Source: an uncultured Eubacteriales bacterium
Lineage (GTDB): Bacteria; Acidobacteriota; Aminicenantia; Aminicenantales; Aminicenantaceae
Assembly: GCA_964429695.1 (NCBI GenBank)
Contig: CAYSCS010000073.1
Span: forward strand, 12,438 to 76,437
Length of the DNA stretch: 64,000 bases
Direction of reading: 5' to 3'
Part shown: positions 52,270 to 64,000 of the stretch, in pieces
How positions within the stretch are numbered: the stretch's first letter is position 1
Layout: each line of letters opens with the position of its first letter
Notes under the pieces: model-generated
Databases searched by the model: none
What the model was told of the DNA's origin: nothing
Seen by the model: the letters and a program-made list of their open reading frames with translations, nothing else
Position numbers and translations under genes: made by a program

Positions 52270-53535
52270 TTAGCGCTCTATCTTTTTCTCGATTTTTTTT
52301 ATCTTTAAAAAAATTGCAGTTGCTAGAAGGAAGATGAAAATGGTGGCAATAATCAAGCCTCTTTTCCTGAATTTCGCCTCATTGAGCGCTTTTTCTCCTT
52401 TCTCCTGAACGCTGGAAAGAATCTCTTCTCCTTCATTTATTTTTTTTTCGAAGTCATCGACGTTGAGGCTATGGGTGAGGTTCCTGACCATTACCAGAAG
52501 ATTCTGAGCCTCTCTCAAATCAAACTTCGACTCACTCACCTCAACACCTTTTCTTTCCGCCGTTTCAAGAATTTCTTCCATTTTTTTTATTTTATTTTTG
52601 AAAGATTCGATTCTATTTCTATAGAGGGAAGAGACTTCAAAGCCTTTTGATCCTTGTTCATGGCAATTCAAACAAACGGATTCTTCTCCTGTGCCGAGCA
52701 TTTCATCTCGGGGAGGAAGTATTCTGTGGTTTTCATGGCAAGCCTCGCATTCTGAAATTCCCATTTCTCCAAAAGCCTCTTTATGCGGACTTTGAGAAAA
52801 TAGTTCACTTGCAGAAGGGTGACATTGATGGCAGACAAAGGCAATCGCTGAGACTCCAGGTGGCATTGCCCCATGATTTCCATGACAGTCGTTGCAGACA
52901 GCGGCGGAAAGGTCCTTTTTTTCGAAAAGAGCCCTGGCATGCACACTCTCTCGATAGTCTTTCTCCTGAGTAATGGGAATTGAATATTCCCTCATGTATT
53001 CTTTATCAGAATGACAACGGCCGCACATAGACGGCAAATTCCAGGGGAAAACAAGAGATTTGGGGTGAGAAGCCTCCAGGATGCCGTGAGAACCGTGACA
53101 ATCAATACAGACAGCTACCTTTATGTCTCCCTTTTTTAGCAACTTTCCATGTTGACTTGTCCAGTAGAGCCCAAGCTGGTCGATTCTGAGGCTGGGGTTA
53201 TATTTTCTGATGTAATCAGAATCCTGATGACAGTCCCCGCAGAAAGCAGGAATTTGTTTTCTCCCTGGGGTTCCTTTGAAGGATGAATCCTTCGCACTTT
53301 CAAGGTCATCTTCCTTTTCATTTCCACCGTGACAGGACACACAGGTGAGGCCGAACTTCTGGTGAATGTCGTTTTTAAAAGCCTCGACAGGGGCACGAAG
53401 CCCGTCTTCAAGCTCTCTATGGCATTCAAGGCAACTGTTCTGAGCCTCAGCTTCTGTTACCTGAAGAAGAAAAAGGGAGAGAATCATCAATCCCAAAAAA
53501 ATAAAATAAAATTTATTGAACTTCATTTCCTTCAT
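52270..53535 (-). CDS. nonahaem c-type cytochrome with N-terminal signal and C-terminal transmembrane anchor
   Basis: nine CXXCH motifs; C-terminal hydrophobic helix GLIIATIFIFLLATAIF; start at 53535 (MKEMKF) overlaps the cytochrome b stop. Confidence 0.8.
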   Translation of the reverse strand: MKEMKFNKFYFIFLGLMILSLFLLQVTEAEAQNSCLECHRELEDGLRAPVEAFKNDIHQKFGLTCVSCHGGNEKEDDLESAKDSSFKGTPGRKQIPAFCGDCHQDSDYIRKYNPSLRIDQLGLYWTSQHGKLLKKGDIKVAVCIDCHGSHGILEASHPKSLVFPWNLPSMCGRCHSDKEYMREYSIPITQEKDYRESVHARALFEKKDLSAAVCNDCHGNHGAMPPGVSAIAFVCHQCHPSASELFSQSPHKEAFGEMGISECEACHENHRILPPRDEMLGTGEESVCLNCHEQGSKGFEVSSLYRNRIESFKNKIKKMEEILETAERKGVEVSESKFDLREAQNLLVMVRNLTHSLNVDDFEKKINEGEEILSSVQEKGEKALNEAKFRKRGLIIATIFIFLLATAIFLKIKKIEKKIER

Positions 53536-54617
53536 AGCCTTGGATGAAGATAGGTGTAGAGAGTGATGAGAATTATGTAGAGGAGGATTATCAGCCCTGC
53601 AATCGAGAAAAAGGGACTTTTTTTCTCCCTTGATGCCCTCCTGTCTAAATAGGGAACGAGCATCCAGAGAAGAGCGCCGAAGATGAATCCCACAATGGCG
53701 AGGACCTCTCCTTTGATGGTAAAAACGTGAGAAGGGATTAATTTTAAAGTTGTAAACATGAAGATAAAATACCACTCAGGTTTTATTCCCAGGGGAGTGG
53801 GAGAAAACATGTCCGCCTTTTTTCCTATTTCCCAGGGAAAAAAGACGCATAAAATCCCTATCAAAGAAAGAATGAGTATCCAACCGAGAGAGTCCTTGAG
53901 GATGAAATTGGGGAAAAATGGCACTTCTTTTATTTGCTTTTCTTTAAGCCCTATGGGTTTACTCATTCCCAGGATTTGAACCAGGAGGATATGGAGCCCG
54001 AGAACAAAGACTGTGATTAAAGGGAGGACGATTACATGAAACCAGAAGAACCTCTGCAGCGTGAACTCTGAGACATCCGGGCCCCCGAGGATGAAATTCT
54101 TGAGCTGCTTCCCGATGAGGGGAATTGTGCCTGCAATGTCAGTTCCCACTCTTGTGGCGAAAAAGGAGAGTTCATTCCAAGGCAGGAGATAACCACTGAA
54201 GCCAAAGGCGAGGAAAATAAGAAGGAGTAAAAATCCGCTTACCCAGGTTAGTTCTCGAGGATTGCGGTAAGCCTTGAGAAAAAAGGTACTGAACATGTGG
54301 ATGAAGATGGTGCCGATGAGGATGTTGGCTGTCCAGGAGTGAAAAGAGCGGATGAGCCAGCCAAACCTTACTTCACCCATAATGAATTTAACGCTTTCAT
54401 AGGCGCCGTCGACAGTGGGTTTATAATAAAGGGCTAACATGATTCCTGTCACGACTTGGATGAAGAAAAGAAAAAGACAGATTCCTCCGAAATAATACCA
54501 GAAGGAGAATTTGTGTTCGGGGACCTTTTTCTTTTTGGCCATTTCGATGAGGGAGGAGAGCCTTAATCTTTGGTCAAGGTGAGAGTAGATTACTCTACCT
54601 ATCTTTTTCATTCTCAT
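53532..54617 (-). CDS. full-length cytochrome b (b6 + subunit-IV-like) of a Rieske/cytb quinol oxidoreductase
   Basis: 361 aa, 7-8 TM helices, N-terminal alignment to cytochrome b6 (FGGICLFLFFIQVVTG...), conserved His pairs in helices. Confidence 0.85.
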   Translation of the reverse strand: MRMKKIGRVIYSHLDQRLRLSSLIEMAKKKKVPEHKFSFWYYFGGICLFLFFIQVVTGIMLALYYKPTVDGAYESVKFIMGEVRFGWLIRSFHSWTANILIGTIFIHMFSTFFLKAYRNPRELTWVSGFLLLLIFLAFGFSGYLLPWNELSFFATRVGTDIAGTIPLIGKQLKNFILGGPDVSEFTLQRFFWFHVIVLPLITVFVLGLHILLVQILGMSKPIGLKEKQIKEVPFFPNFILKDSLGWILILSLIGILCVFFPWEIGKKADMFSPTPLGIKPEWYFIFMFTTLKLIPSHVFTIKGEVLAIVGFIFGALLWMLVPYLDRRASREKKSPFFSIAGLIILLYIILITLYTYLHPRL

Positions 54618-55036
54618 GTCCTGGAAACTATGATCTCTTCACCTGAAATCTCTACCTTGTAAGACCTGAGGGGTGAGGGTGGGGGACCTGAGATCACTCT
54701 TCCGCTCAGGTCGAATTTTCCATTATGGCAGGGGCAGAGGATTATTCCTTCTTCACTTTGATAGATAACTGAACAACTAAGATGAGTACATACAGCCGAA
54801 AAAGCAAGAAGTTCACCTTCTTGAGTCTTGATTAAGATGGCAGGTTCTTCGCCGAACTTGAAAATCTTGTGGGTGTTGGGTGGAATTTCTCGAGCCTTTC
54901 CGACAACGACTTTTTTGGCTGTCACCTTGGCTTTCTTAGGAGGAATAAGGTAACGGATAAGGGGATACAGAAAAGAAGCTATCGTTCCCGTCAGGCTCAA
55001 AAAAAGAAAAATATCAATGAAACTTCTTCTTTTCAT
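54614..55036 (-). CDS. Rieske [2Fe-2S] protein
   Basis: CTHLSC...CPCHNGKF boxes; N-terminal KRRSFID Tat-like anchor. Confidence 0.85.
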   Translation of the reverse strand: MKRRSFIDIFLFLSLTGTIASFLYPLIRYLIPPKKAKVTAKKVVVGKAREIPPNTHKIFKFGEEPAILIKTQEGELLAFSAVCTHLSCSVIYQSEEGIILCPCHNGKFDLSGRVISGPPPSPLRSYKVEISGEEIIVSRT

Positions 55037-57023
55037 CTCTACTTTTCTGGATTGATTCTAACTTTTTTTTCAACGCTGTCAAGCTTTCTTCAGTGAAATT
55101 AAAGTTATGTACCCCGAGGCTTCCATCAAGTTCGAATTTTTCGATCAATTTGTGGGCCTCATTGAGTTTAAGGTTTATATATTCTCCCCCCAGCCCCTTT
55201 TCTTTCTTTTCTTTTAATAAAAAGCGACAGGAGTTTAGAAGGGTCCGGGTTGTGGATTGCCATTCATCAAAGATTTCCTTGTATCTATCTTCATGACACT
55301 CTCCACACTTATTCCGGTCAGAGCGATAAACGAGATTGTTTCTTTCCAGGTGGCAGTCGGAGCATCCTACCCCGGCGCTTGCCATCCTATCCTCTGGAAT
55401 TATAAATTCATCTTCCTTGCCTCCTTGATAAAAAGTCTTCTGGAGGAGGTGGCACTCTTCGCACCTTCTTGAGTTTTTCTCATGGTGGCAGGGAGCACAG
55501 CTCTTTTTTGTGGTCACGAGCTCCCCATGTCTTCTGAGATTTAAGTGACAGGAATCGCAGCCAATTTTACTTCCCAGAACATGCGTCTTATGGGAGAAAG
55601 TTAAGCCAAATATGGAGGAGCTGATTTCTTCGATTCCTTCATGACAGGTTATACACTGAGAGGGTATCTCCCCTCCCAAAACCTCGAAGGAAGGAGGAGT
55701 AAAGGGAGATTCGATGAGACGCAGAGCATCCACCATCATTTTATAAGCTGCAGAGAGTAGCTCCAGGGAATAACTCATGTTGTGAACACTCTTCCCCTTT
55801 TCAACGAGTTCGATGTTGAAGAGAGCATCTTCGAGAAGAGATTCAGCATTTTTCTTCTGCGGATGTTTAGTCATTTTTAATTCCTGAAGAATATTGAGGT
55901 ATAGGGAACGAATTTCTCCTATTTTCTTATTCGTGGAAAGCTCCCACTCCTTCAATATCCTTGAGAATCCCTTTCCGTGACATGAGGAGCATGCTTCACT
56001 CCCTGAAACGAGAGTTTCACTCTTGATTTTCTTTCTCCCTTCTTCTTCGTGGAGAAAGTGGCAACCCTTGCAGCTTAACCCCTTTTCGAGCATGAGGTTT
56101 GGTTTTGGATGAGGGATCCCTTTTCCTCCTTCTCCAGTAAAGAGAATTTTCTGGGCAAGATGATGGCCAGCATGGCAAGAGGTGCATTCGGCAATGGCTT
56201 CAATATTTTTCACAATCTTGTGCTGGATTTCTAAGTGGCATTGATTGCACTCGACCTTGTGAAGATAGATATGGGTTTCGTGCATCAAATCTGTATCATC
56301 GTATCTTTTTAACCTCTCTTCTTCCCAGTGACATTTGTAGCAATTTTCTCTGGGTACCTCACCTTCTCCTAGGATGGTATTAGTATGGCATTTCTCACAG
56401 GAAATTCCGTTTTCGATGACCAGAGCATGCTTAAAAGAAGAACTCCCCTCTTCACTAAGAGACTCTCTTTGGTGACAGTGCAGACAATTATCGATTTGAG
56501 GATAGTGTTCACTTCTCTTGAAATGACAGATGAAGCATGAGCTTTCGGTGACGGTGATGTGTTCGCCCTGGACTATCTGAGAATGACAGCTTGTGCACTG
56601 TAGCCTCTTTCCTCTCTTGAGGTCAGAGAAATGGACTCTATGGTCAAAGATAATTTTCTTGAATCTTACCTTCCCCTCTAGAAGCCTCTTCTCATGACAG
56701 CCTTGGCGAAGACAACTTTCGTCTCTTATTTCCGCCCATGGCTTTGATTTGAGGTAGAGCTTTGTCCAGTAGCGTCCCACCATCACCAGCCCTTCCACCT
56801 TCTTCCTGAGTTTGCTCTTCACCCCACCTCCTGGAGGGTAGTGACAGAGGCTGCATTCGAATTTGTTATGGGAGGAAGTTTTCCAGCTTTCAAAGAAAGG
56901 TTTCATGTAATGACACATAGCACAGAAACGAGAGTGGGAGGTGAATTCGATTGAGCCGAAAAGAAAAAGGATGAAAATAGAGGCGATAACGACGGCTACA
57001 ATTAAGCCTTTCTTTCTTTTCAT
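55014..57023 (-). CDS. membrane-anchored multihaem (17 CXXCH + 1 CX4CH) c-type cytochrome with NapC/NrfH-like N-terminus
   Basis: N-terminal TM helix followed immediately by CAMCH; 17 canonical haem-binding motifs across 669 aa. Confidence 0.8.
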   Translation of the reverse strand: MKRKKGLIVAVVIASIFILFLFGSIEFTSHSRFCAMCHYMKPFFESWKTSSHNKFECSLCHYPPGGGVKSKLRKKVEGLVMVGRYWTKLYLKSKPWAEIRDESCLRQGCHEKRLLEGKVRFKKIIFDHRVHFSDLKRGKRLQCTSCHSQIVQGEHITVTESSCFICHFKRSEHYPQIDNCLHCHQRESLSEEGSSSFKHALVIENGISCEKCHTNTILGEGEVPRENCYKCHWEEERLKRYDDTDLMHETHIYLHKVECNQCHLEIQHKIVKNIEAIAECTSCHAGHHLAQKILFTGEGGKGIPHPKPNLMLEKGLSCKGCHFLHEEEGRKKIKSETLVSGSEACSSCHGKGFSRILKEWELSTNKKIGEIRSLYLNILQELKMTKHPQKKNAESLLEDALFNIELVEKGKSVHNMSYSLELLSAAYKMMVDALRLIESPFTPPSFEVLGGEIPSQCITCHEGIEEISSSIFGLTFSHKTHVLGSKIGCDSCHLNLRRHGELVTTKKSCAPCHHEKNSRRCEECHLLQKTFYQGGKEDEFIIPEDRMASAGVGCSDCHLERNNLVYRSDRNKCGECHEDRYKEIFDEWQSTTRTLLNSCRFLLKEKKEKGLGGEYINLKLNEAHKLIEKFELDGSLGVHNFNFTEESLTALKKKLESIQKSRDEKKKFH

Positions 57024-57086
57024 CTTAGAATCAACACGGGCCGTTTTGGCGATTCAAGAAGAGAGGTTTCAAGCTCATCCTTTTTA

Positions 57087-57905
57087 TCAGGCATAGGAAT
57101 GGAGACCGGAGATTAAGTAATTCACACCGAAGTAAGTAAACATGGCTGTGAGAAATCCAATGATGGCAATCCATGCTGAACGTCTTCCTCTCCATCCCAT
57201 GAGGAGCCGGGTATGGAGATAAAGGGCGAAGACAAACCAAGTGATCAGGCTCCAGGTCTCCTTTGGATCCCAGCTCCAGTAGCTTCCCCAGGCTTTGTGA
57301 GCCCAGACCATGCCGAAGACAAGTGCTCCCAGAGTAAACAGGGGGAAACCTACGGCAATACACCTGTAACTTATCCAATCCAGCTTCAGGGAAGAGAGAG
57401 AAGATTTAAGTTTCTTTCCTTTTTTCTCTCTTCTCTCTGTGGTTAAATACATGATGCTCGTGATGAAAGCCAAAGCGAAGAAAGCCTCTCCCAGCAGAGT
57501 CACCGAGACATGGAGCCACAACCAGTAACTCTGGAGTGCTGGAACAAGAGGAGTGTGATCTTTGGGCATGAGAGGAGAGGAGGCAAGAGCCATTACTGCC
57601 ATGACGATGAGCAGGAAATAGGGACCAACGTTACGAAATTTGTATTTTTTTTCCATGATGAGATAAGCCAGGATGGAAGACCAGGCTAGAAAGGAGAGTG
57701 ATTCATACATGTTGGTAAAGGGAGCATGACCACTCTCAATGGTGCGCAGGATGAGAGCTAGGGTATGAAGAATGAGACCACCTGCGGCGAAAAAATAGGC
57801 AATTTTTCCCACGGTTTCTCTTTTAGAAAAGAGAAAAGAAAAATAAAAAAAACAAGAGAGGATGTAGGCTAAAAAGGTCACTGAAAATAGAATCGATTCA
57901 TTCAA
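57087..57905 (-). CDS. ccsA: cytochrome c biogenesis (system II) protein CcsA/ResC
   Basis: polytopic; W-rich WGSYWSWDPKETW motif. Confidence 0.8.
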   Translation of the reverse strand: MNESILFSVTFLAYILSCFFYFSFLFSKRETVGKIAYFFAAGGLILHTLALILRTIESGHAPFTNMYESLSFLAWSSILAYLIMEKKYKFRNVGPYFLLIVMAVMALASSPLMPKDHTPLVPALQSYWLWLHVSVTLLGEAFFALAFITSIMYLTTERREKKGKKLKSSLSSLKLDWISYRCIAVGFPLFTLGALVFGMVWAHKAWGSYWSWDPKETWSLITWFVFALYLHTRLLMGWRGRRSAWIAIIGFLTAMFTYFGVNYLISGLHSYA

Positions 57906-59260
57906 CTCCGCCTCCTTAAAGAATCGAATATTTTGTTGAGTTCAGCCTCAAGCGCTTCTTTATTCTTTGAGCTCAAGGCGCCGACTGCAATTTCTGTTGA
58001 TTTTTCTTCTTGCTCGAGGATTGCCTTTATTTCCCTTATAGGCCAGTAGAAGGCAAGCATCAGTCCCATCATCAAAAAGGCACATCCCGTCCAGATGAGA
58101 GGGGTGCCGGGGTCGCGAGCTACCTGAATGACCGAAAATTGCCTTGCCCGTATCTCGGTGATTTCAATTTTTAAATCATCTTTATTCTTCTGGTGAAGAG
58201 AGGCGAAATCTGGAAACCTTGAGAAAACCCATCCTGAGAAAATTCTTTGACCATCTTTCCATCCTTCTATGAAAGCCGCTGGATTATTCGGTTGGAGAGA
58301 GCGCGTCCTTATTTGCTTGTTTTCGTCAATCATGAAATCAGGGACAAAGCGAGTGACTTTAATTTCTATCTCTCCTCCCCAAAGCCTTACTCTTTCACCA
58401 ACCTCCAATGAAATTCTTTCAGGTCCCTCAGTTGATTTATTGTTTGAGATTAGAAGTTCAAGAGAGGGGCTCTCCCAATCCAAGCCATAACTTGATTGAT
58501 AGAAAAGCAAGCCTTTGTAAGATAAGGGATGATTGACTTCAATCACTTTATTAAGTTGGGGCGCTCCTTTTTCTAATACCGTGAGAGTACTCTTCCAGTC
58601 TTTTACGCTTCCGTTAGCATAGAATTCAGTCTCGAATTTTTCCAACCTGATTTTGAAATCAGCTCTAGGAACAGGAATTACTTCTTGTTCGTAGAGGATG
58701 AGGTTTTCACGAAAACCACCCAGACCGCTCAGAATTCCTCCAGCGAGGATGATAAGCAGACCCAAATGCACAATGTCCGAACCGAAGGCACCCAGCAACC
58801 TTTTTCTACCTATAATAAATATTTTCCCTTCACCTTCCCTTTCTCTTACTCGATAGTGTCTGAGTCGGAGCTCCCCTCTCAATTCTTCTTTTGCCTTAAG
58901 CACGCTCCAGTTTTTTCTAATTTTTTTTGAAATTTTTAGAAGCTGGAGATTTTTTTGTTCTGTTTCAAATTGGGGGTTAAGAATCCTTCTTAATTTCGGC
59001 ATGAGGCGAATCAGGGTACAGGTGATGATGTTTAGGGAGAAGATGAAGAGAAGCCCTATGAACCAGAAGGAGTGATAGAGATTTGTAATTTTAAGCCGGA
59101 TTAGAAGCTGAGCAAGAGAGCCATAACGAGCAAAATATTCGGCAGGGGGTCTCTGCTGAGGAACAAGAGTTCCAAATACCGAGGAGATTGTGATGAGGGA
59201 GATGATTACAAGAGCAAGCTTGATGCTCTTAAAAAAATTTAATAATCTTTGCATCAGCAA
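57902..59260 (-). CDS. ccsB: cytochrome c biogenesis (system II) protein ResB/CcsB
   Basis: 452 aa; ResB-like N-terminal TM segments and large periplasmic domain; ATGA overlap with ccsA. Confidence 0.75.
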   Translation of the reverse strand: MLMQRLLNFFKSIKLALVIISLITISSVFGTLVPQQRPPAEYFARYGSLAQLLIRLKITNLYHSFWFIGLLFIFSLNIITCTLIRLMPKLRRILNPQFETEQKNLQLLKISKKIRKNWSVLKAKEELRGELRLRHYRVREREGEGKIFIIGRKRLLGAFGSDIVHLGLLIILAGGILSGLGGFRENLILYEQEVIPVPRADFKIRLEKFETEFYANGSVKDWKSTLTVLEKGAPQLNKVIEVNHPLSYKGLLFYQSSYGLDWESPSLELLISNNKSTEGPERISLEVGERVRLWGGEIEIKVTRFVPDFMIDENKQIRTRSLQPNNPAAFIEGWKDGQRIFSGWVFSRFPDFASLHQKNKDDLKIEITEIRARQFSVIQVARDPGTPLIWTGCAFLMMGLMLAFYWPIREIKAILEQEEKSTEIAVGALSSKNKEALEAELNKIFDSLRRRS

Positions 59261-59519: not shown

Positions 59520-60755
59520 TCATTTCCTGGAGCTTCTGAGCTCCTCGGCCCTTTCCTTTATCTCGGTGAGACTTCGCCTCATCTCACTCCACCCGTACCA
59601 GAGGGCATAATCAGGATTAGCGTGGAATGTACCCTGGAAAGTCCTCATCCTGTGCTCGAGAAACATGACAAAAAGCTTCTGCTCTATGGCAGTTGGGGCA
59701 TCGTGGAAAGTAAGTAAATCAGGGAAGGGAGAGGAATATGATTCTGGTTTGACGAGTATTCCATCTTTGTAGAGTGAAGCAACAATCCTAATTGCCTCTG
59801 CCATCAGCCTGTCTGCTTCGCGGATTATCTGGTCTCCTTTTTCGAGTTCGGCCTTGGCAAAATTGCGGGAGTGACACTGGTTGCAGGTGGTAAGCATCTT
59901 TTCTCTTTCTTTCTCCCATTCATCTTGAGTAAGGCGGGCTACCCTTGCTTGTTTTACAACATCTAATCTTGGGGTTGGATTCCCTTTCGGGTCGAGTACA
60001 CCCAGGGCCTGGAGGATTGTTACTCTATCCGCTGCCCACTGTTTGTCATCCGGCAGGGGAAGGCGGACTGCCAGGAATCCCCATGAAGTAAGAACATTGT
60101 GGTCTCCCTTAACCATGTGACAGGTCTGACAGGTTGGAGCAGCCACAGTCTCAGGCAAGGTTCTGTTTTGCTTCAAGAGAAACCTGACCCCATGCTTTGA
60201 ACCTGAATACATCTCCCATTGAGGATGATCAAACCCCATGTGGCAGGTCTGGCAGGCCTGAGGCTGACGGGCTTCTTGCACAGAAAAGACATGGCGGGTG
60301 TGACAGGCATCGCAGGAAGCAACGCCAAATCCTGGACCATGTTTCTTCAAGTGCTTAATCTCTTCTTCGGATTTCAAACCTATTTTGTGGCATCCACCGC
60401 ACCCCTTCATTCCTTCCATGAGCGCCATGGGCTGCCAGTGCGCAGTGGGCATGGCTTTCATTGCTGCCCATGCGGCTGCGTGCTTTCCTGACTTGAATTG
60501 TTCCACCCTTTCTGGATGACAATTGGCACAAGTCTCGGGTTGGGGAATCTGAGCCCTTTCCACATCCTGCGAACCCTTATGCATATCGCCATGGCAAATG
60601 GAGCAAGTTACTTCATTCTGGCTATGTTTACTGAGCTGCCAATCATTGACGATGTTGGGAGTCGACTTTTTATGACAATCCACACATTCTTGGGAAAATA
60701 GAAGAACTGAAAAACCAAGACTCAAGAAAAAGGAAAAGAAAACCTTCCCTTTCAA
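59520..60755 (-). CDS. octahaem c-type cytochrome, secreted (HAO-like or OmaB-like)
   Basis: signal peptide; eight CXXCH; C-terminal helical region (NPDYALWYGW). Confidence 0.8.
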   Translation of the reverse strand: MKGKVFFSFFLSLGFSVLLFSQECVDCHKKSTPNIVNDWQLSKHSQNEVTCSICHGDMHKGSQDVERAQIPQPETCANCHPERVEQFKSGKHAAAWAAMKAMPTAHWQPMALMEGMKGCGGCHKIGLKSEEEIKHLKKHGPGFGVASCDACHTRHVFSVQEARQPQACQTCHMGFDHPQWEMYSGSKHGVRFLLKQNRTLPETVAAPTCQTCHMVKGDHNVLTSWGFLAVRLPLPDDKQWAADRVTILQALGVLDPKGNPTPRLDVVKQARVARLTQDEWEKEREKMLTTCNQCHSRNFAKAELEKGDQIIREADRLMAEAIRIVASLYKDGILVKPESYSSPFPDLLTFHDAPTAIEQKLFVMFLEHRMRTFQGTFHANPDYALWYGWSEMRRSLTEIKERAEELRSSRK

Positions 60756-61109: not shown

Positions 61110-63266
61110 CTAACGCCATTCGAATCTCTGCCTCTTGCCCCCGAGATGTTCGATGGAATCCACCAGGAGCTGGGCAATGTAACGTGAATTGTGGATGTAT
61201 CCACCTGGCTCTTTTTTACTGAGCTGGAAGTTGTATGCGGCTTTGAGGAGAGCAGGGTCAAAGGAATTGTAACCATTGGGATAGATGTTTTCTCCTGGGT
61301 CTACTTTCCCGTTTGCGTTGAGGTCATAGAAGAAATAGGGATAAGTGTGTCCATCATACACTAGCGCTGCTTTGAGTACCTCGAGAGCATATTTTCGGAT
61401 CTCAGCATAGAGGAGCTTTTCCAGTCCCTTCAACTCTTCTCTTATGGATTCAGAGATGTCGCCGTCTCCATCATAGTCTGGAATGGTGGCAGGACGGATG
61501 CCTCTGAAATGAAATTTTCTCGGGTCAGTCCCTTTTTGTGGCTGGGAAATATCATTTCCATGGCAGAAGACACAGTCTGCTGGGTCAGGACTCTGAACAT
61601 TGTGGAGGTGTCCTGTGATATCATAGGGCGCATTTTCGCTTTTTGTTCCCATGTGGCATTCGACGCAAGTTTGGAATTTCCCTTGGTGGCTGAGGAAAGG
61701 TGTGCGGGTAGCGTAATTTCTATTTGGGAATTCGAAGCCTGCCTTGACTTCACTTCCGAAAAGCACGGCTGCTGCAGGGTAGTAATGGATGTTGATGAAT
61801 GAGTAAGGACCAGGAGAAGAGGAGATGGTTTCCTTGACAGTGAATTTTGAGGCTCGGCCCTGATGACAGTTTAGGCACAGATTGCTTGAATCTCCCATAT
61901 CCTTGCTTATCCCCGAGGGAAATCTTACTGCCCCTGCTTTTCTCATCCCAGGAGGAGTGGTATGACATGTTATACAGAGGAGACCATTTGAAGGTTCTTC
62001 GCTTACAGTTTTTCCCTGCTCAAGGAAAGAGGAAAGGCCTTGGGAACTATGACATTTGGAACATGAAGCTGGGACTTTCCCTTCTTCGTCCCAGTGCCTC
62101 CATGCTTCGGCTGAGCCATTGAAATGTCCCTCATCTTCCCTGTAGATACCGGCCAAGAGATGAGAATCTTCGAGTTTTCGATTGAGGTCTTCGAGGGAAT
62201 CGAAGAGGAGCTCGATGATGTATTTTCCACCGTGTGCATAGGAGTTGGGGTCTTTCTGAGCTACCTGGTAATTGTAGGCAGCCTTGAGAAGACGCGGGGT
62301 AAAGGTAATATATCTATTGGCAAAATTAATCTCATTCTCATCCGCTTGGCCATTATCGTTTAAGTCATTGAAGAAATAAGGATAAGTATGTGAGTCATAG
62401 ACTATGGGGTTTAAGACTATTTCGCGCGCATATTTTTTTATCCCTAGGTAGAGTCTTTCCTTTAAATCTTCGATCTCATAATAGATGCCTTCAACCATGT
62501 CCCCATCGCCATCATAATCAACGAATGAGCCATAAAAACGGATGTCTTTGGGGTCCTTTATTCCCGTGTGGCAAGTGTTGCAGGAGTTAATGTCAATCTT
62601 GAGGGAGTGAGGATTGTGGCATGTGGTGCAAGCGTTGTAGCCAGTTAAGTGAGAGAATCTAGAGTCATAGGATTTTCCCGAATATTCGTAGCCCCCTCTT
62701 ACGAAAGTTCCAAATTGGGTGACAGCAGCGGCATAATAATGGATGTTGATGAAACCGAGGGCTTGGCTGACAACATCCTCTTCCACCGAAGCTCTTGCGA
62801 TTGCTTCATTCACAGAATTCGTGGATGCCCTTCCCTGGTGACATTCTATACATAAGGCTTCTGGACCGAGATTTTCAACAGTTTTTCCAGAAGGGAAAGT
62901 CACTGCGCTACGTTCATGAGTTAAGCCTGATTTATAATCTGAATGGCAGGCTTCACATTCTATGGTTGTTCCTGTTTTAGCGCTTGAGTCAACCTTTTCA
63001 GGAGTAGAGCCATCTACACCGAGAAAGTCCCTAAAACCAGGAGTTGAATGACATTTGGCGCAGGTGGGGGGTATCTCACCTTCTTCATTCCAGTGAGTGA
63101 ATGCCTCTGCAGATGAGTCTGCATGCCCTGAGGTTTCCCACAGTTTTCTGGCGTGTGATTCTTTTGACTGGATGGAAGACTCTTCATCTGGTTTTGCCTT
63201 CAGGGCAAGAAGGACAAGGCAGAATAAAGCCCCCAGCGTGGCCACTATTCTAAGGTATTTCCCCAT
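61110..63266 (-). CDS. decahaem c-type cytochrome built from two tandem pentahaem modules
   Basis: signal peptide; 10 CXXCH; two about 305-aa repeats each ending in DYDGDGD and LLKAAYN(Y/F)Q blocks. Confidence 0.8.
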   Translation of the reverse strand: MGKYLRIVATLGALFCLVLLALKAKPDEESSIQSKESHARKLWETSGHADSSAEAFTHWNEEGEIPPTCAKCHSTPGFRDFLGVDGSTPEKVDSSAKTGTTIECEACHSDYKSGLTHERSAVTFPSGKTVENLGPEALCIECHQGRASTNSVNEAIARASVEEDVVSQALGFINIHYYAAAVTQFGTFVRGGYEYSGKSYDSRFSHLTGYNACTTCHNPHSLKIDINSCNTCHTGIKDPKDIRFYGSFVDYDGDGDMVEGIYYEIEDLKERLYLGIKKYAREIVLNPIVYDSHTYPYFFNDLNDNGQADENEINFANRYITFTPRLLKAAYNYQVAQKDPNSYAHGGKYIIELLFDSLEDLNRKLEDSHLLAGIYREDEGHFNGSAEAWRHWDEEGKVPASCSKCHSSQGLSSFLEQGKTVSEEPSNGLLCITCHTTPPGMRKAGAVRFPSGISKDMGDSSNLCLNCHQGRASKFTVKETISSSPGPYSFINIHYYPAAAVLFGSEVKAGFEFPNRNYATRTPFLSHQGKFQTCVECHMGTKSENAPYDITGHLHNVQSPDPADCVFCHGNDISQPQKGTDPRKFHFRGIRPATIPDYDGDGDISESIREELKGLEKLLYAEIRKYALEVLKAALVYDGHTYPYFFYDLNANGKVDPGENIYPNGYNSFDPALLKAAYNFQLSKKEPGGYIHNSRYIAQLLVDSIEHLGGKRQRFEWR
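61154..63089 (-). repeat. intragenic tandem duplication (about 915 bp x 2) inside the decahaem cytochrome gene
   Basis: DNA-level similarity between 61310-61360 and 62350-62400 and parallel protein motifs; units approximately 61154-62069 and 62174-63089. Confidence 0.6.
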
Positions 63267-63281
63267 TTCACCCTCCTTCGT

Positions 63282-64000
63282 CTATTCCCATCTGTAAGAG
63301 AAAGAAATCTCCAATATGTTCGCTCCGTAATCATTAAACCCAGAGAGCCTCTCTTTAAATTTGAGATAACGATAACCGGCCGAAGCAGAAATACCATTGG
63401 GAAAGAGATATTCAAGATATGCTTTAATCAAATTCCTGGAAATTTCCCAGAAACCCAGATTCCAGTAGAGATTTCCCGAGGCACCGATTTTCAAGCGCTC
63501 TGTTAGATTCAACAGAAGTGAGGAATCAAGAAGGTTCGATCTTCCTTCATAAAGAATTTCCCAGAGAAATGTGCCTCCTGGTCCGCTAAACGAAGGAGGA
63601 TAGGCAATGTTTCGCTTCCCTTCATGTCTCTGATCAATCAAGGAATATCCGCCCGAAACCAAAATTGCTTTGCTCCTGTATGAAGCCTGAAGGCTGAGCT
63701 GATTCCTTCGCGACTGCCAGAGATTTAAAAAGACCTCACTCTCTGAGCCTTTCCAGAGATAGGAACCTAAGAGGTTTATTTTTTCGAAACGAGTCCTGAA
63801 GCTCACTCTGAAACGAGAGAAGCTTGTGGGAGAAATTAGGGTAAAGGGCTCGTCCAGGAATCCATTTTCATAATCGAGATTTATTACGAGGCGAGAAATT
63901 GGTTCGATTCTAAAGTTGCCAAAAATTCCCTTCTTCGTGCTTCTTTCTTCATAGGTTATTGTTTCAAATGGAGAAGTAACTCTTTGAGAAGAAGCTAAGC
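63282..64000 (-). CDS. outer-membrane beta-barrel (porin-like) protein, 5'-partial (continues beyond window end)
   Basis: frame is open from 64000 down to the stop at 63282; amphipathic beta-strand pattern (GANILEISFSYRW, ASAGYRYLKF, GASGNLYWNLGFWEIS); 15 bp upstream of the decahaem gene. Confidence 0.5.
   Translation of the reverse strand, partial: LASSQRVTSPFETITYEERSTKKGIFGNFRIEPISRLVINLDYENGFLDEPFTLISPTSFSRFRVSFRTRFEKINLLGSYLWKGSESEVFLNLWQSRRNQLSLQASYRSKAILVSGGYSLIDQRHEGKRNIAYPPSFSGPGGTFLWEILYEGRSNLLDSSLLLNLTERLKIGASGNLYWNLGFWEISRNLIKAYLEYLFPNGISASAGYRYLKFKERLSGFNDYGANILEISFSYRWE

Follow-up and report, generated by a model that had tools for sequence, protein, structure and literature searches.

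A tandem NrfA-like decahaem cytochrome encoded beside MtrA-like and outer-membrane barrel genes in Aminicenantes

We describe a decahaem c-type cytochrome gene on the minus strand of a 64,000-nucleotide stretch of DNA (the window) from an uncultured Eubacteriales bacterium that GTDB places in the Aminicenantaceae (GenBank assembly GCA_964429695.1, contig CAYSCS010000073.1, positions 12,438 to 76,437). The gene, taken from the list of open reading frames (ORFs) and its translation, encodes 718 residues, and an identical protein (P0001) is found on 5 public contigs of up to 159 kb. Its ten haem motifs are exactly those listed in an earlier interpretation made from the letters alone (the sequence-only reading), which named no strand; five lie in each half, and each half is a module of about 330 residues distantly related to NrfA, the pentahaem nitrite reductase. 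Pfam and NCBIfam searches with the protein gave only generic matches driven by CxxCH motifs. The positions of all features are collected in Table 1.

That the protein is a tandem duplication of a pentahaem module, as had been proposed, is confirmed by self-comparison: BLASTP of residues 1-370 against 371-718 aligned residues 44-366 with 377-713 at 38% identity over 352 columns (E 2e-76), and a Smith-Waterman alignment of the two halves gave 44% identity over 306 aligned pairs. The accompanying claim that the duplication can be seen in the DNA held in part, in that the best blastn match between the halves covers 176 nt at 69% identity (E 2e-11), but the repeat is only marginally visible at this level, the codon-aligned modules sharing 53% of their nucleotides and 39% of their third positions. 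So little of the repeat survives in the DNA that the duplication must be ancient. The sequences most like module 1 are single-module proteins and the first modules of other two-module proteins; those most like module 2 are other second modules. The duplication therefore predates the spread of the two-module form. A recent duplication in place is ruled out by the saturation of third codon positions together with this positional orthology. Module 2 differs by a 15-residue insertion between its haems 4 and 5. The linker between the modules carries an invariant R376-x-D-E-G-H and the protein ends in an invariant W717-R718; a conserved arginine marks the module ends (window positions 61113-61118 and 62139-62141, minus strand), and single-module proteins mostly end in '...RP'.

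In each module the five haem motifs are followed by a three-helix subdomain. An AlphaFold2 model of module 1 alone, made from an alignment of single-module homologues (pLDDT 90.1, pTM 0.91), runs from the haem-binding region through a long helix and a beta-hairpin to two more helices, the three long C-terminal helices (residues 261-284, 324-337 and 342-362) being modelled at pLDDT 93-98; the full-length model is mediocre (pLDDT 70.8, pTM 0.57). When the module 1 model was compared with the PDB by Foldseek, the top match was OcwA (6i5b_A; probability 1.00, E 1.2e-3, TM-scores 0.44/0.31), NrfA entries ranked weakly behind it, and no structure of MtrC, OmcA, MtrF or UndA was among the matches. 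OcwA, a proven cell-surface terminal reductase (PMC6703420), is described as combining a c554-like tetrahaem unit with a pentahaem core that resembles NrfA and carries a three-helix bundle (PMC6703420, PMC9250108). Only this NrfA-like part of OcwA has its counterpart in the module, and the 718-residue protein is equivalent to two such parts in one chain.

At the level of sequence, kinship with NrfA came out only with a profile of the family. A phmmer search of the PDB with the full-length decahaem found nothing significant, whereas the family profile found the NrfA chains 3ubr (3.5e-8), 1fs7 (4.9e-6) and 6v0a (1e-4); OcwA was not picked up in this way. Alignment to the family hidden Markov model (HMM) with hmmalign placed E. 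coli NrfA C122/C125/K126 and residues 160-164, 209-213, 282-286 and 314-318 on module residues 69-73, 104-108, 139-143, 213-217 and 229-233, so that all five c-type haem motifs follow NrfA in order and spacing, and it set His275 of NrfA on H206 and Tyr216 on R146. In hhalign, the family and the single E. coli NrfA sequence aligned in the haem 1-2 region only (probability 57%). The Pfam family Cytochrom_C552 (PF02335) matched 11 of 28 family members at E <=1, with a best value of 4e-10, and the window module reached 8.8 bits, below the gathering cutoff of 24.1. The lysine-ligated catalytic haem motif of NrfA, CxxCK, is absent, as haem 1 is bound by CAKCH or CSKCH; the position of Tyr216 is held by Arg, and no equivalent of the Arg/Tyr/His distal triad of NrfA could be aligned in the module. 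These results also bear on the low haem density pointed out in the sequence-only reading, which is real (one haem per 72 residues, against one per 31 in the adjacent MtrA-like decahaem) but does not reflect large, separate non-haem domains; in their place is the three-helix subdomain typical of the NrfA/OcwA superfamily, which supplies a conserved histidine (H345/H692). MtrA, the comparator used there, is better replaced by NrfA and OcwA for the fold and by MtrC for the position in the operon.

Residue conservation was assessed over 200 near-complete modules. Five histidines outside the haem motifs are nearly invariant (H48 90%, H176 98%, H206 94%, H220 98% and H345 97%), while H58 is conserved in just 60%. 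The LLKAAYN(Y/F)Q helices were found where they had been reported (residues 326-334 and 673-681), each as the first half of a signature helix pair in which N332 (96%), H345 and Y349 (95%) stand out. Four of the module histidines match in order H94, H275, H301 and H393 of E. coli NrfA, which we take to be its distal haem ligands; of these matches, the alignment itself placed only H206 on H275. By elimination, H176 would lie near haem 1, and there it may either bind the iron, in which case all haems would be bis-histidine and the protein would be purely a wire, or stay unligated above an open site, like the catalytic histidine of NrfA. The catalytic His264 of NrfA could not be mapped onto H176, which aligns to Tyr242 in a haem 3-4 region where the alignment is unreliable. 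In OcwA, conserved non-bonding histidines stand over open haems (PMC9250108).

The acidic DYDGDGD loops begin at residues 250 and 597, equivalent positions in the two halves, in agreement with the sequence-only reading. They do not end the modules, as was supposed there; each stands at the start of the helical subdomain, which makes up the C-terminal 120 residues or so of the module. Of 20,000 composition-preserving shuffles of the decahaem, only a fraction of 5e-05 contained DxDxDG at least twice. This first loop (DYDGDGDxxE) is well conserved over the 200 modules (D250 91%, D252 86%, D254 78%, G255 80%, E259 80%), and each of the two modules has a second loop that had escaped notice, DxNxNGxxDxxE, with the canonical ligand pattern of an EF-hand (residues 301-312 and 648-659; D301 82%, N/D303 77%, N/D305 76%, G306 80%, D309 58%, E312 66%). 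The loops are kept in homologues, single-module ones included. A lack of significant internal repeat, or of loop conservation in homologues, had been named beforehand as grounds for abandoning the proposal; because the loops are conserved and the repeat is highly significant, neither applies.

Both loop types, DxDxDGxxxE and DxNxNGxxDxxE, resemble bacterial Ca2+-binding loops in their ligand pattern but are not flanked by the usual helix-loop-helix pair. The Excalibur motif, DxDxDGxxCE, has its Glu at position 10, as does loop 1. Neither type passes the strict PROSITE pattern PS00018, no dockerin or Excalibur match from Pfam was seen for them, and the Pfam models EF-hand_5 and EF-hand_1 match 5 and 2 of 28 family members, respectively. 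Four putative Ca2+ sites per protein are a reasonable inference from these patterns. We did not adopt a dockerin identity for the loops: they are kept in stand-alone single-module proteins too, and the one association with a cohesin that was found is a domain fused to the cytochrome itself, which offers the loops no partner.

The family to which the modules belong is large. Searching with module 1 returned about 1,400 clusters (50% identity) at E <=1e-3 among 1.84 billion cluster representatives. In the best 150 matches plus the window protein, one near-complete module was present in 76 proteins, two in 58 and three in 1, and 178 of 195 near-complete modules had five CxxCH motifs. Single-module homologues of the kind that the sequence-only reading suggested looking for thus exist, at about 360 residues. 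A lipobox occurs in just 2 of 120 close homologues, and in most of them the cleavage site is of the AxA type. Neither Pfam nor NCBIfam has a model of its own for the module, and database names for the family are 'hypothetical', 'multiheme c-type cytochrome' and 'polyheme membrane-associated cytochrome C'.

Some relatives carry the one- or two-module unit fused to other domains: 2-4 Big_2 domains with lipoprotein signals (P0128/P0134/P0137), a cytochrome b561-type membrane domain, a cytoplasmic Ser/Thr kinase, or a methyl-accepting chemotaxis protein (MCP) signalling domain (P0122, P0126, P0191). Given these fusions, the module also serves as an extracytoplasmic redox-sensing or surface-displayed unit. 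In the metagenome-assembled genome of an 'uncultured delta proteobacterium' (MFD04716.bin.2.301; L075:6311-13453), the products of three consecutive genes all start with a signal peptide followed by a cohesin domain (Pfam PF00963, E 9e-13 and 1.6e-10); they are a two-module family member (frameshifted in the assembly), a 406-residue Thr-rich protein, and a 970-residue cytochrome whose 28 CxxCH motifs are separated by Thr-rich linkers; this trio looks like a cohesin-based assembly of extracellular cytochromes. The marine alphaproteobacterium Limimaricola soesokkakensis has a lone single-module homologue (L079/L080:8001-9089; WP_ RefSeq accessions, named 'polyheme membrane-associated cytochrome C' by NCBI), divergently oriented from a Na+-NQR (nqr) operon.

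Upstream of the decahaem gene lies the gene that the sequence-only reading called porin-like, and the 15-bp gap given there is correct, the upstream stop codon being at 63282. The window holds the C-terminal 239 codons of this 635-residue outer-membrane barrel (full gene L001:8078-9985), which the ORF list shows as a 174-residue ORF (63282-63806, minus strand, internal GTG) because the true ORF runs past the window end. Generic OMP_b-brl matches were obtained for 11 of 15 barrel orthologues; with the Pfam model MtrB_PioB (PF11854) the barrel scores 21.2 bits against a cutoff of 23, and 2 of the 15 orthologues match. The next gene, beyond the window end, encodes a 308-residue cytochrome with ten CxxCH motifs that matches TIGR03508 (DmsE) at E 6e-52 over profile positions 3-257 of 258 (176.6 bits, curated cutoff 192.2) and MtrA of the Shewanella baltica Mtr complex (6r2q_A) at E 1.6e-26, and so is clearly homologous to the MtrA/DmsE family, with a score just short of the curated cutoff.

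To survey this arrangement we scanned one genome per species, starting from a close alignment that biases the sample towards two-module Aminicenantes genes, and obtained 75 loci. Most of the loci are titled Candidatus Aminicenantes, many have generic titles ('uncultured Eubacteriales'), and a few are titled as Desulfobacterota-type metagenome-assembled genomes or Anaerolineales. In 60 of the loci the sequence reaches at least 3.2 kb beyond the decahaem gene on its upstream side, and in 57 of these the MtrA-like and barrel genes come immediately before it in the same orientation. As an MtrA/DmsE-type decahaem gene and a gene for a barrel of 620-650 residues thus precede it in nearly all of these loci, the decahaem gene holds the position of MtrC in a porin-cytochrome conduit. 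Still further upstream is an Rrf2-type regulator (L001:5865-7140), conserved in many loci at 57-78% identity and separated from the MtrA-like gene by about 800 nt without annotation. Rrf2 regulators often sense Fe-S cluster status, iron or NO, and this one could point to the inducer of the operon.

On the downstream side, 426 nt from the decahaem gene, is an HAO-like gene, the most conserved of the cluster (73-82% identity), whose product matches Pfam Multi-haem_cyto and, weakly, a hydrazine dehydrogenase model; no terminator and no convincing promoter were found in the 426-nt gap. It is followed by a respiratory cluster with the haem-attachment proteins ResB and CcsA, a NapC/NirT-type cytochrome of 669 residues with 17-18 haem motifs, a Rieske protein, a cytochrome b, a 9-haem cytochrome membrane-anchored at its C-terminus, and, on the same strand, a c554-like tetrahaem protein. 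The HAO-like gene, ResB, CcsA and the NapC-type cytochrome are commonly found downstream across the loci. The Rieske, cytochrome b, NapC/NirT-type and 9-haem cytochromes with ResB/CcsA form a probable quinol-oxidising module; when the conduit genes are counted too, the haem-binding sites of the cluster number close to 60. Positions 1-49000 of the window hold fermentative, amino-acid and fatty-acid catabolic and housekeeping genes (for example those for 2-oxoacid:ferredoxin oxidoreductase, beta-oxidation enzymes, a xanthine-dehydrogenase-type molybdoenzyme, methylmalonyl-CoA mutase, hydantoinases, S9/S15 peptidases, RuvABC and carbamoyl-phosphate synthase), a content that fits the usual picture of Aminicenantes.

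Table 1. Features of the decahaem gene and its neighbours, in window coordinates.
Feature	Residues	Coordinates	Strand	Basis
Decahaem c-type cytochrome gene (718 aa; span includes stop)		61110..63266	-	ORF list, translation
Sec-type signal peptide, MGKYLRIVATLGALFCLVLLALKA, without lipobox	1-24	63195..63266	-	read from sequence
Module 1, NrfA-like pentahaem unit and helical subdomain	40-370	62157..63149	-	self-alignment, AlphaFold2, Foldseek, NrfA colinearity
Module 2, second NrfA-like pentahaem unit	376-718	61113..62141	-	self-alignment; module HMM 378-711, 308 bits
Haem 1, CAKCH, aligned with NrfA active-site CWSCK	69-73	63048..63062	-	
Haem 2, CEACH	104-108	62943..62957	-	
Haem 3, CIECH, then conserved QGR(A/E)S	139-143	62838..62852	-	
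Haem 4, CTTCH	213-217	62616..62630	-	
Haem 5, CNTCH	229-233	62568..62582	-	
Haem 6, CSKCH	402-406	62049..62063	-	
Haem 7, CITCH	431-435	61962..61976	-	
Haem 8, CLNCH	464-468	61863..61877	-	
Haem 9, CVECH	534-538	61653..61667	-	
Haem 10, CVFCH	565-569	61560..61574	-	
Acidic loop 1, module 1, DYDGDGDMVE (type DxDxDGxxxE), directly before first long helix	250-259	62490..62519	-	
EF-hand-like loop 2, module 1, DLNDNGQADENE, after beta-hairpin	301-312	62331..62366	-	
Acidic loop 1, module 2, DYDGDGDISE	597-606	61449..61478	-	
EF-hand-like loop 2, module 2, DLNANGKVDPGE	648-659	61290..61325	-	
Signature helix pair, module 1, LLKAAYNYQ...YAHGGKY, with H345	326-349	62220..62291	-	
Signature helix pair, module 2, LLKAAYNFQ...YIHNSRY, with H692	673-696	61179..61250	-	
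Upstream outer-membrane beta-barrel gene (635 aa), 3' part		63282..64000	-	contig extension L001, Pfam OMP_b-brl
HAO-like octahaem cytochrome, 8 CxxCH, downstream		59520..60683	-	
Rest of respiratory cluster: ResB, CcsA, NapC/NirT-type cytochrome, Rieske, cytochrome b, 9-haem cytochrome		52270..59260	-	

We suggest, with about even confidence, that the decahaem is an extracellular electron-exchange partner, the third component of an MtrAB-type conduit. It would be made together with the MtrA/DmsE-type periplasmic decahaem and the 635-residue barrel, and its role would be that of MtrC in Shewanella. From the quinol pool, electrons would pass into the adjacent Rieske/cytochrome b complex with its membrane-anchored multihaem cytochromes; the MtrA-like haem wire inside the barrel would then carry them through the outer membrane to the twin-module cytochrome at the surface, which would exchange them, in either direction, with redox partners that are insoluble or extracellular. 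Contact between the two modules is probably made by their helical subdomains, in the manner of the subunits of the NrfA homodimer, which would yield one continuous ten-haem chain, and the acidic loops are likely to bind Ca2+ and to make the helical subdomain more rigid. A surface location is favoured by the gap of just 15 bp to the barrel gene, by a three-gene order that is almost universal, by the kinship with OcwA, and by the Big_2 and cohesin domains of relatives.

Several observations weigh against this placement. Unlike the lipoproteins MtrC and OmcA, the protein has no lipobox, a lack shared by nearly all of its close homologues; the default destination of a Sec-exported protein in a diderm is the periplasm; and the module is not intrinsically extracellular, since the Limimaricola homologue stands beside nqr with no conduit nearby. 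The barrel is only marginal for MtrB_PioB, and neither it nor its 15-member profile has a sequence match in the PDB. The packing of the modules is uncertain in the full-length model, the highly conserved HAO-like neighbour hints at nitrogen-oxide chemistry and not metal reduction, and a full-text search of a paper library found no description of the family or of the DYDGDG motif.

Some of these points fit a periplasmic decahaem that would act as wire or shuttle, linking the Rieske/cytochrome b and multihaem complex of the inner membrane to the MtrA-like protein at its periplasmic end, a possibility that we hold more tentatively. The signal peptide with an AxA-type site and without a lipid anchor is what would be expected of such a protein, and PioC is a periplasmic partner in pioABC, with its gene after the porin gene. 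The Mto cluster likewise offers a precedent for the order A-B-X with a periplasmic X, mtoD encoding a putative periplasmic carrier (PMC8805035). The Limimaricola homologue, with no porin nearby, is most simply periplasmic, and the fusions to b561-type, Ser/Thr kinase and MCP domains put the module just outside the cytoplasmic membrane. However, the cluster already encodes anchored cytochromes of 17-18 and 9 haems and a c554-like protein, so that a carrier of 80 kDa is not obviously needed, and the periplasmic partners of MtrA-type conduits known to us are small. The tight coupling to the barrel gene and the three-gene order suggest a complex of fixed stoichiometry, the nearest solved fold is that of a surface reductase, and surface modules of the Big_2 and cohesin types occur on relatives. 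We therefore favour the surface-exposed role over the periplasmic one.

A different question, compatible with either location, is whether an NrfA-like reactive haem has been kept, with haem 1 of one or both modules five-coordinate and engaged in small-molecule redox chemistry. Candidate substrates would be nitrite, hydroxylamine, NO or a sulfur oxyanion, and the protein might work with the HAO-like enzyme, drawing electrons from the conduit or passing them to it. We consider this unlikely. The haem 1 motif does align with the catalytic CWSCK of NrfA, and each module has exactly five conserved non-motif histidines, the number that we take E. coli NrfA to have, as four distal ligands and a non-bonding catalytic one. 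After haem 3, a strictly conserved CH-QGR-S takes the place of the NrfA CH-VEY, which contains the catalytic Tyr and a Ca2+ ligand, and no gene of the cluster is better conserved than the HAO-like neighbour. OcwA and OmhA, moreover, keep non-bonding distal histidines and two open haems and yet act in extracellular electron transfer (PMC6703420, PMC9250108). On the other hand, haem 1 has CxxCH and not CxxCK, Arg stands at the position of Tyr216, and no triad can be aligned. H176 is available as a sixth ligand of haem 1, which would make all haems bis-histidine; generic electron transfer accounts better than one specific chemistry for the reuse of the module in kinases, MCPs and fusions with b-type cytochromes; and the Cytochrom_C552 score of the window protein is far below threshold.

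More speculatively, and improbable in our view, the twin modules with open haems would be a double-active-site reductase on an MtrAB-type conduit, coupling, with the HAO-like enzyme, nitrogen-oxide chemistry (nitrite, hydroxylamine, NO) to extracellular electron uptake or discharge in Aminicenantes, and the four Ca2+ loops would provide dockerin-like attachment of the anchor-less protein to the surface. That the decahaem belongs to the MtrC family is very improbable: it does have ten haems in about 700 residues as two pentahaem halves, lies beside MtrA-like and porin genes, and belongs to a family in which 26 of 28 members have sub-threshold or short matches to Pfam Mtrc-MtrF_II-IV_dom, but these are limited to CxxCH-rich stretches, the model consists almost wholly of helices, with a single hairpin in each module, and lacks the beta-barrel domains I and III, and the Foldseek result, the missing lipobox and the lack of any MtrC-type NCBIfam hit at E <=0.01 led us to reject the assignment.

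Anoxic sediments and the deep subsurface harbour Aminicenantes (OP8) in abundance, and genome studies have mostly described them as fermenters (e.g. PMC5569505). The conservation, in dozens of their genomes, of a complete electron route from the Rieske/cytochrome b complex through multihaem cytochromes and an MtrA-like wire in a barrel to the decahaem argues that many of them are able to exchange electrons with minerals, humics or partner cells. As the third component is of the NrfA/OcwA type and not MtrC-like, an MtrAB core would here be combined with a structurally unrelated partner, and marker-gene surveys that seek MtrC would miss organisms with this conduit. The module itself represents a large uncharacterised family whose members also turn up as parts of surface proteins, quinol-linked membrane cytochromes, kinases and chemoreceptors. 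A covalently fused pseudo-dimer of NrfA-like units is relevant to the question of how multihaem cytochromes of the enzyme and wire types gave rise to one another. The Limimaricola soesokkakensis homologue could, if a culture is available, offer an experimentally tractable entry to the family.

Among known systems, the closest in fold are OcwA of Thermincola potens (6I5B) and OmhA, both cell-surface reductases of Gram-positives. They share with the module an NrfA-type haem core followed by a three-helix bundle, CxxCH in place of CxxCK on the haem equivalent to haem 1 of NrfA, and the proposed passing of electrons to extracellular acceptors. The trait of their class, nine or eleven haems with an N-terminal c554-like tetrahaem module, is not found here; OcwA has nine haems in a c554-like tetrahaem and a single NrfA-like unit, whereas the decahaem has two NrfA-like units and no c554-like part. 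Identity between OcwA and the module is 15%, at TM-scores of 0.31-0.44, OcwA belongs to a monoderm without a porin, and the OcwA paper mentions no calcium.

As in NrfA, haems 3 and 4 of the module are 70-74 residues apart, a histidine precedes the haem 4 motif by 7 residues, and the long C-terminal helices include a conserved histidine. The NrfA homodimer carries ten haems, and the tandem protein may mimic it in one chain. The module is about 110 residues shorter than NrfA and has a hairpin and two acidic loops inserted in the helical subdomain, and while NrfA is encoded in nrfHA or nrfABCD operons, the decahaem operon is that of a porin-cytochrome conduit.

In this respect the decahaem resembles MtrC and OmcA (Shewanella MtrCAB, 6R2Q), which also have ten haems in about 700 residues as two pentahaem halves, are encoded with an MtrA-family decahaem and a large outer-membrane barrel, and would presumably do the same job; they differ in their unrelated fold with split-barrel domains, in their lipoprotein signal, and in the gene order, C-A-B as opposed to A-B-X here. 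The latter order, an MtrA/DmsE-family decahaem gene followed by a barrel gene and a partner gene, is that of DmsEFAB, PioABC and MtoAB(CD), where the partners are a molybdoenzyme (DmsAB), a high-potential iron-sulfur protein (HiPIP; PioC) and a monohaem cytochrome (MtoD), none of them an NrfA-like decahaem. As these systems share the A-B-partner order, the MtrAB core has evidently been reused with different third components, of which the tandem NrfA-like cytochrome of Aminicenantes would be a further one.

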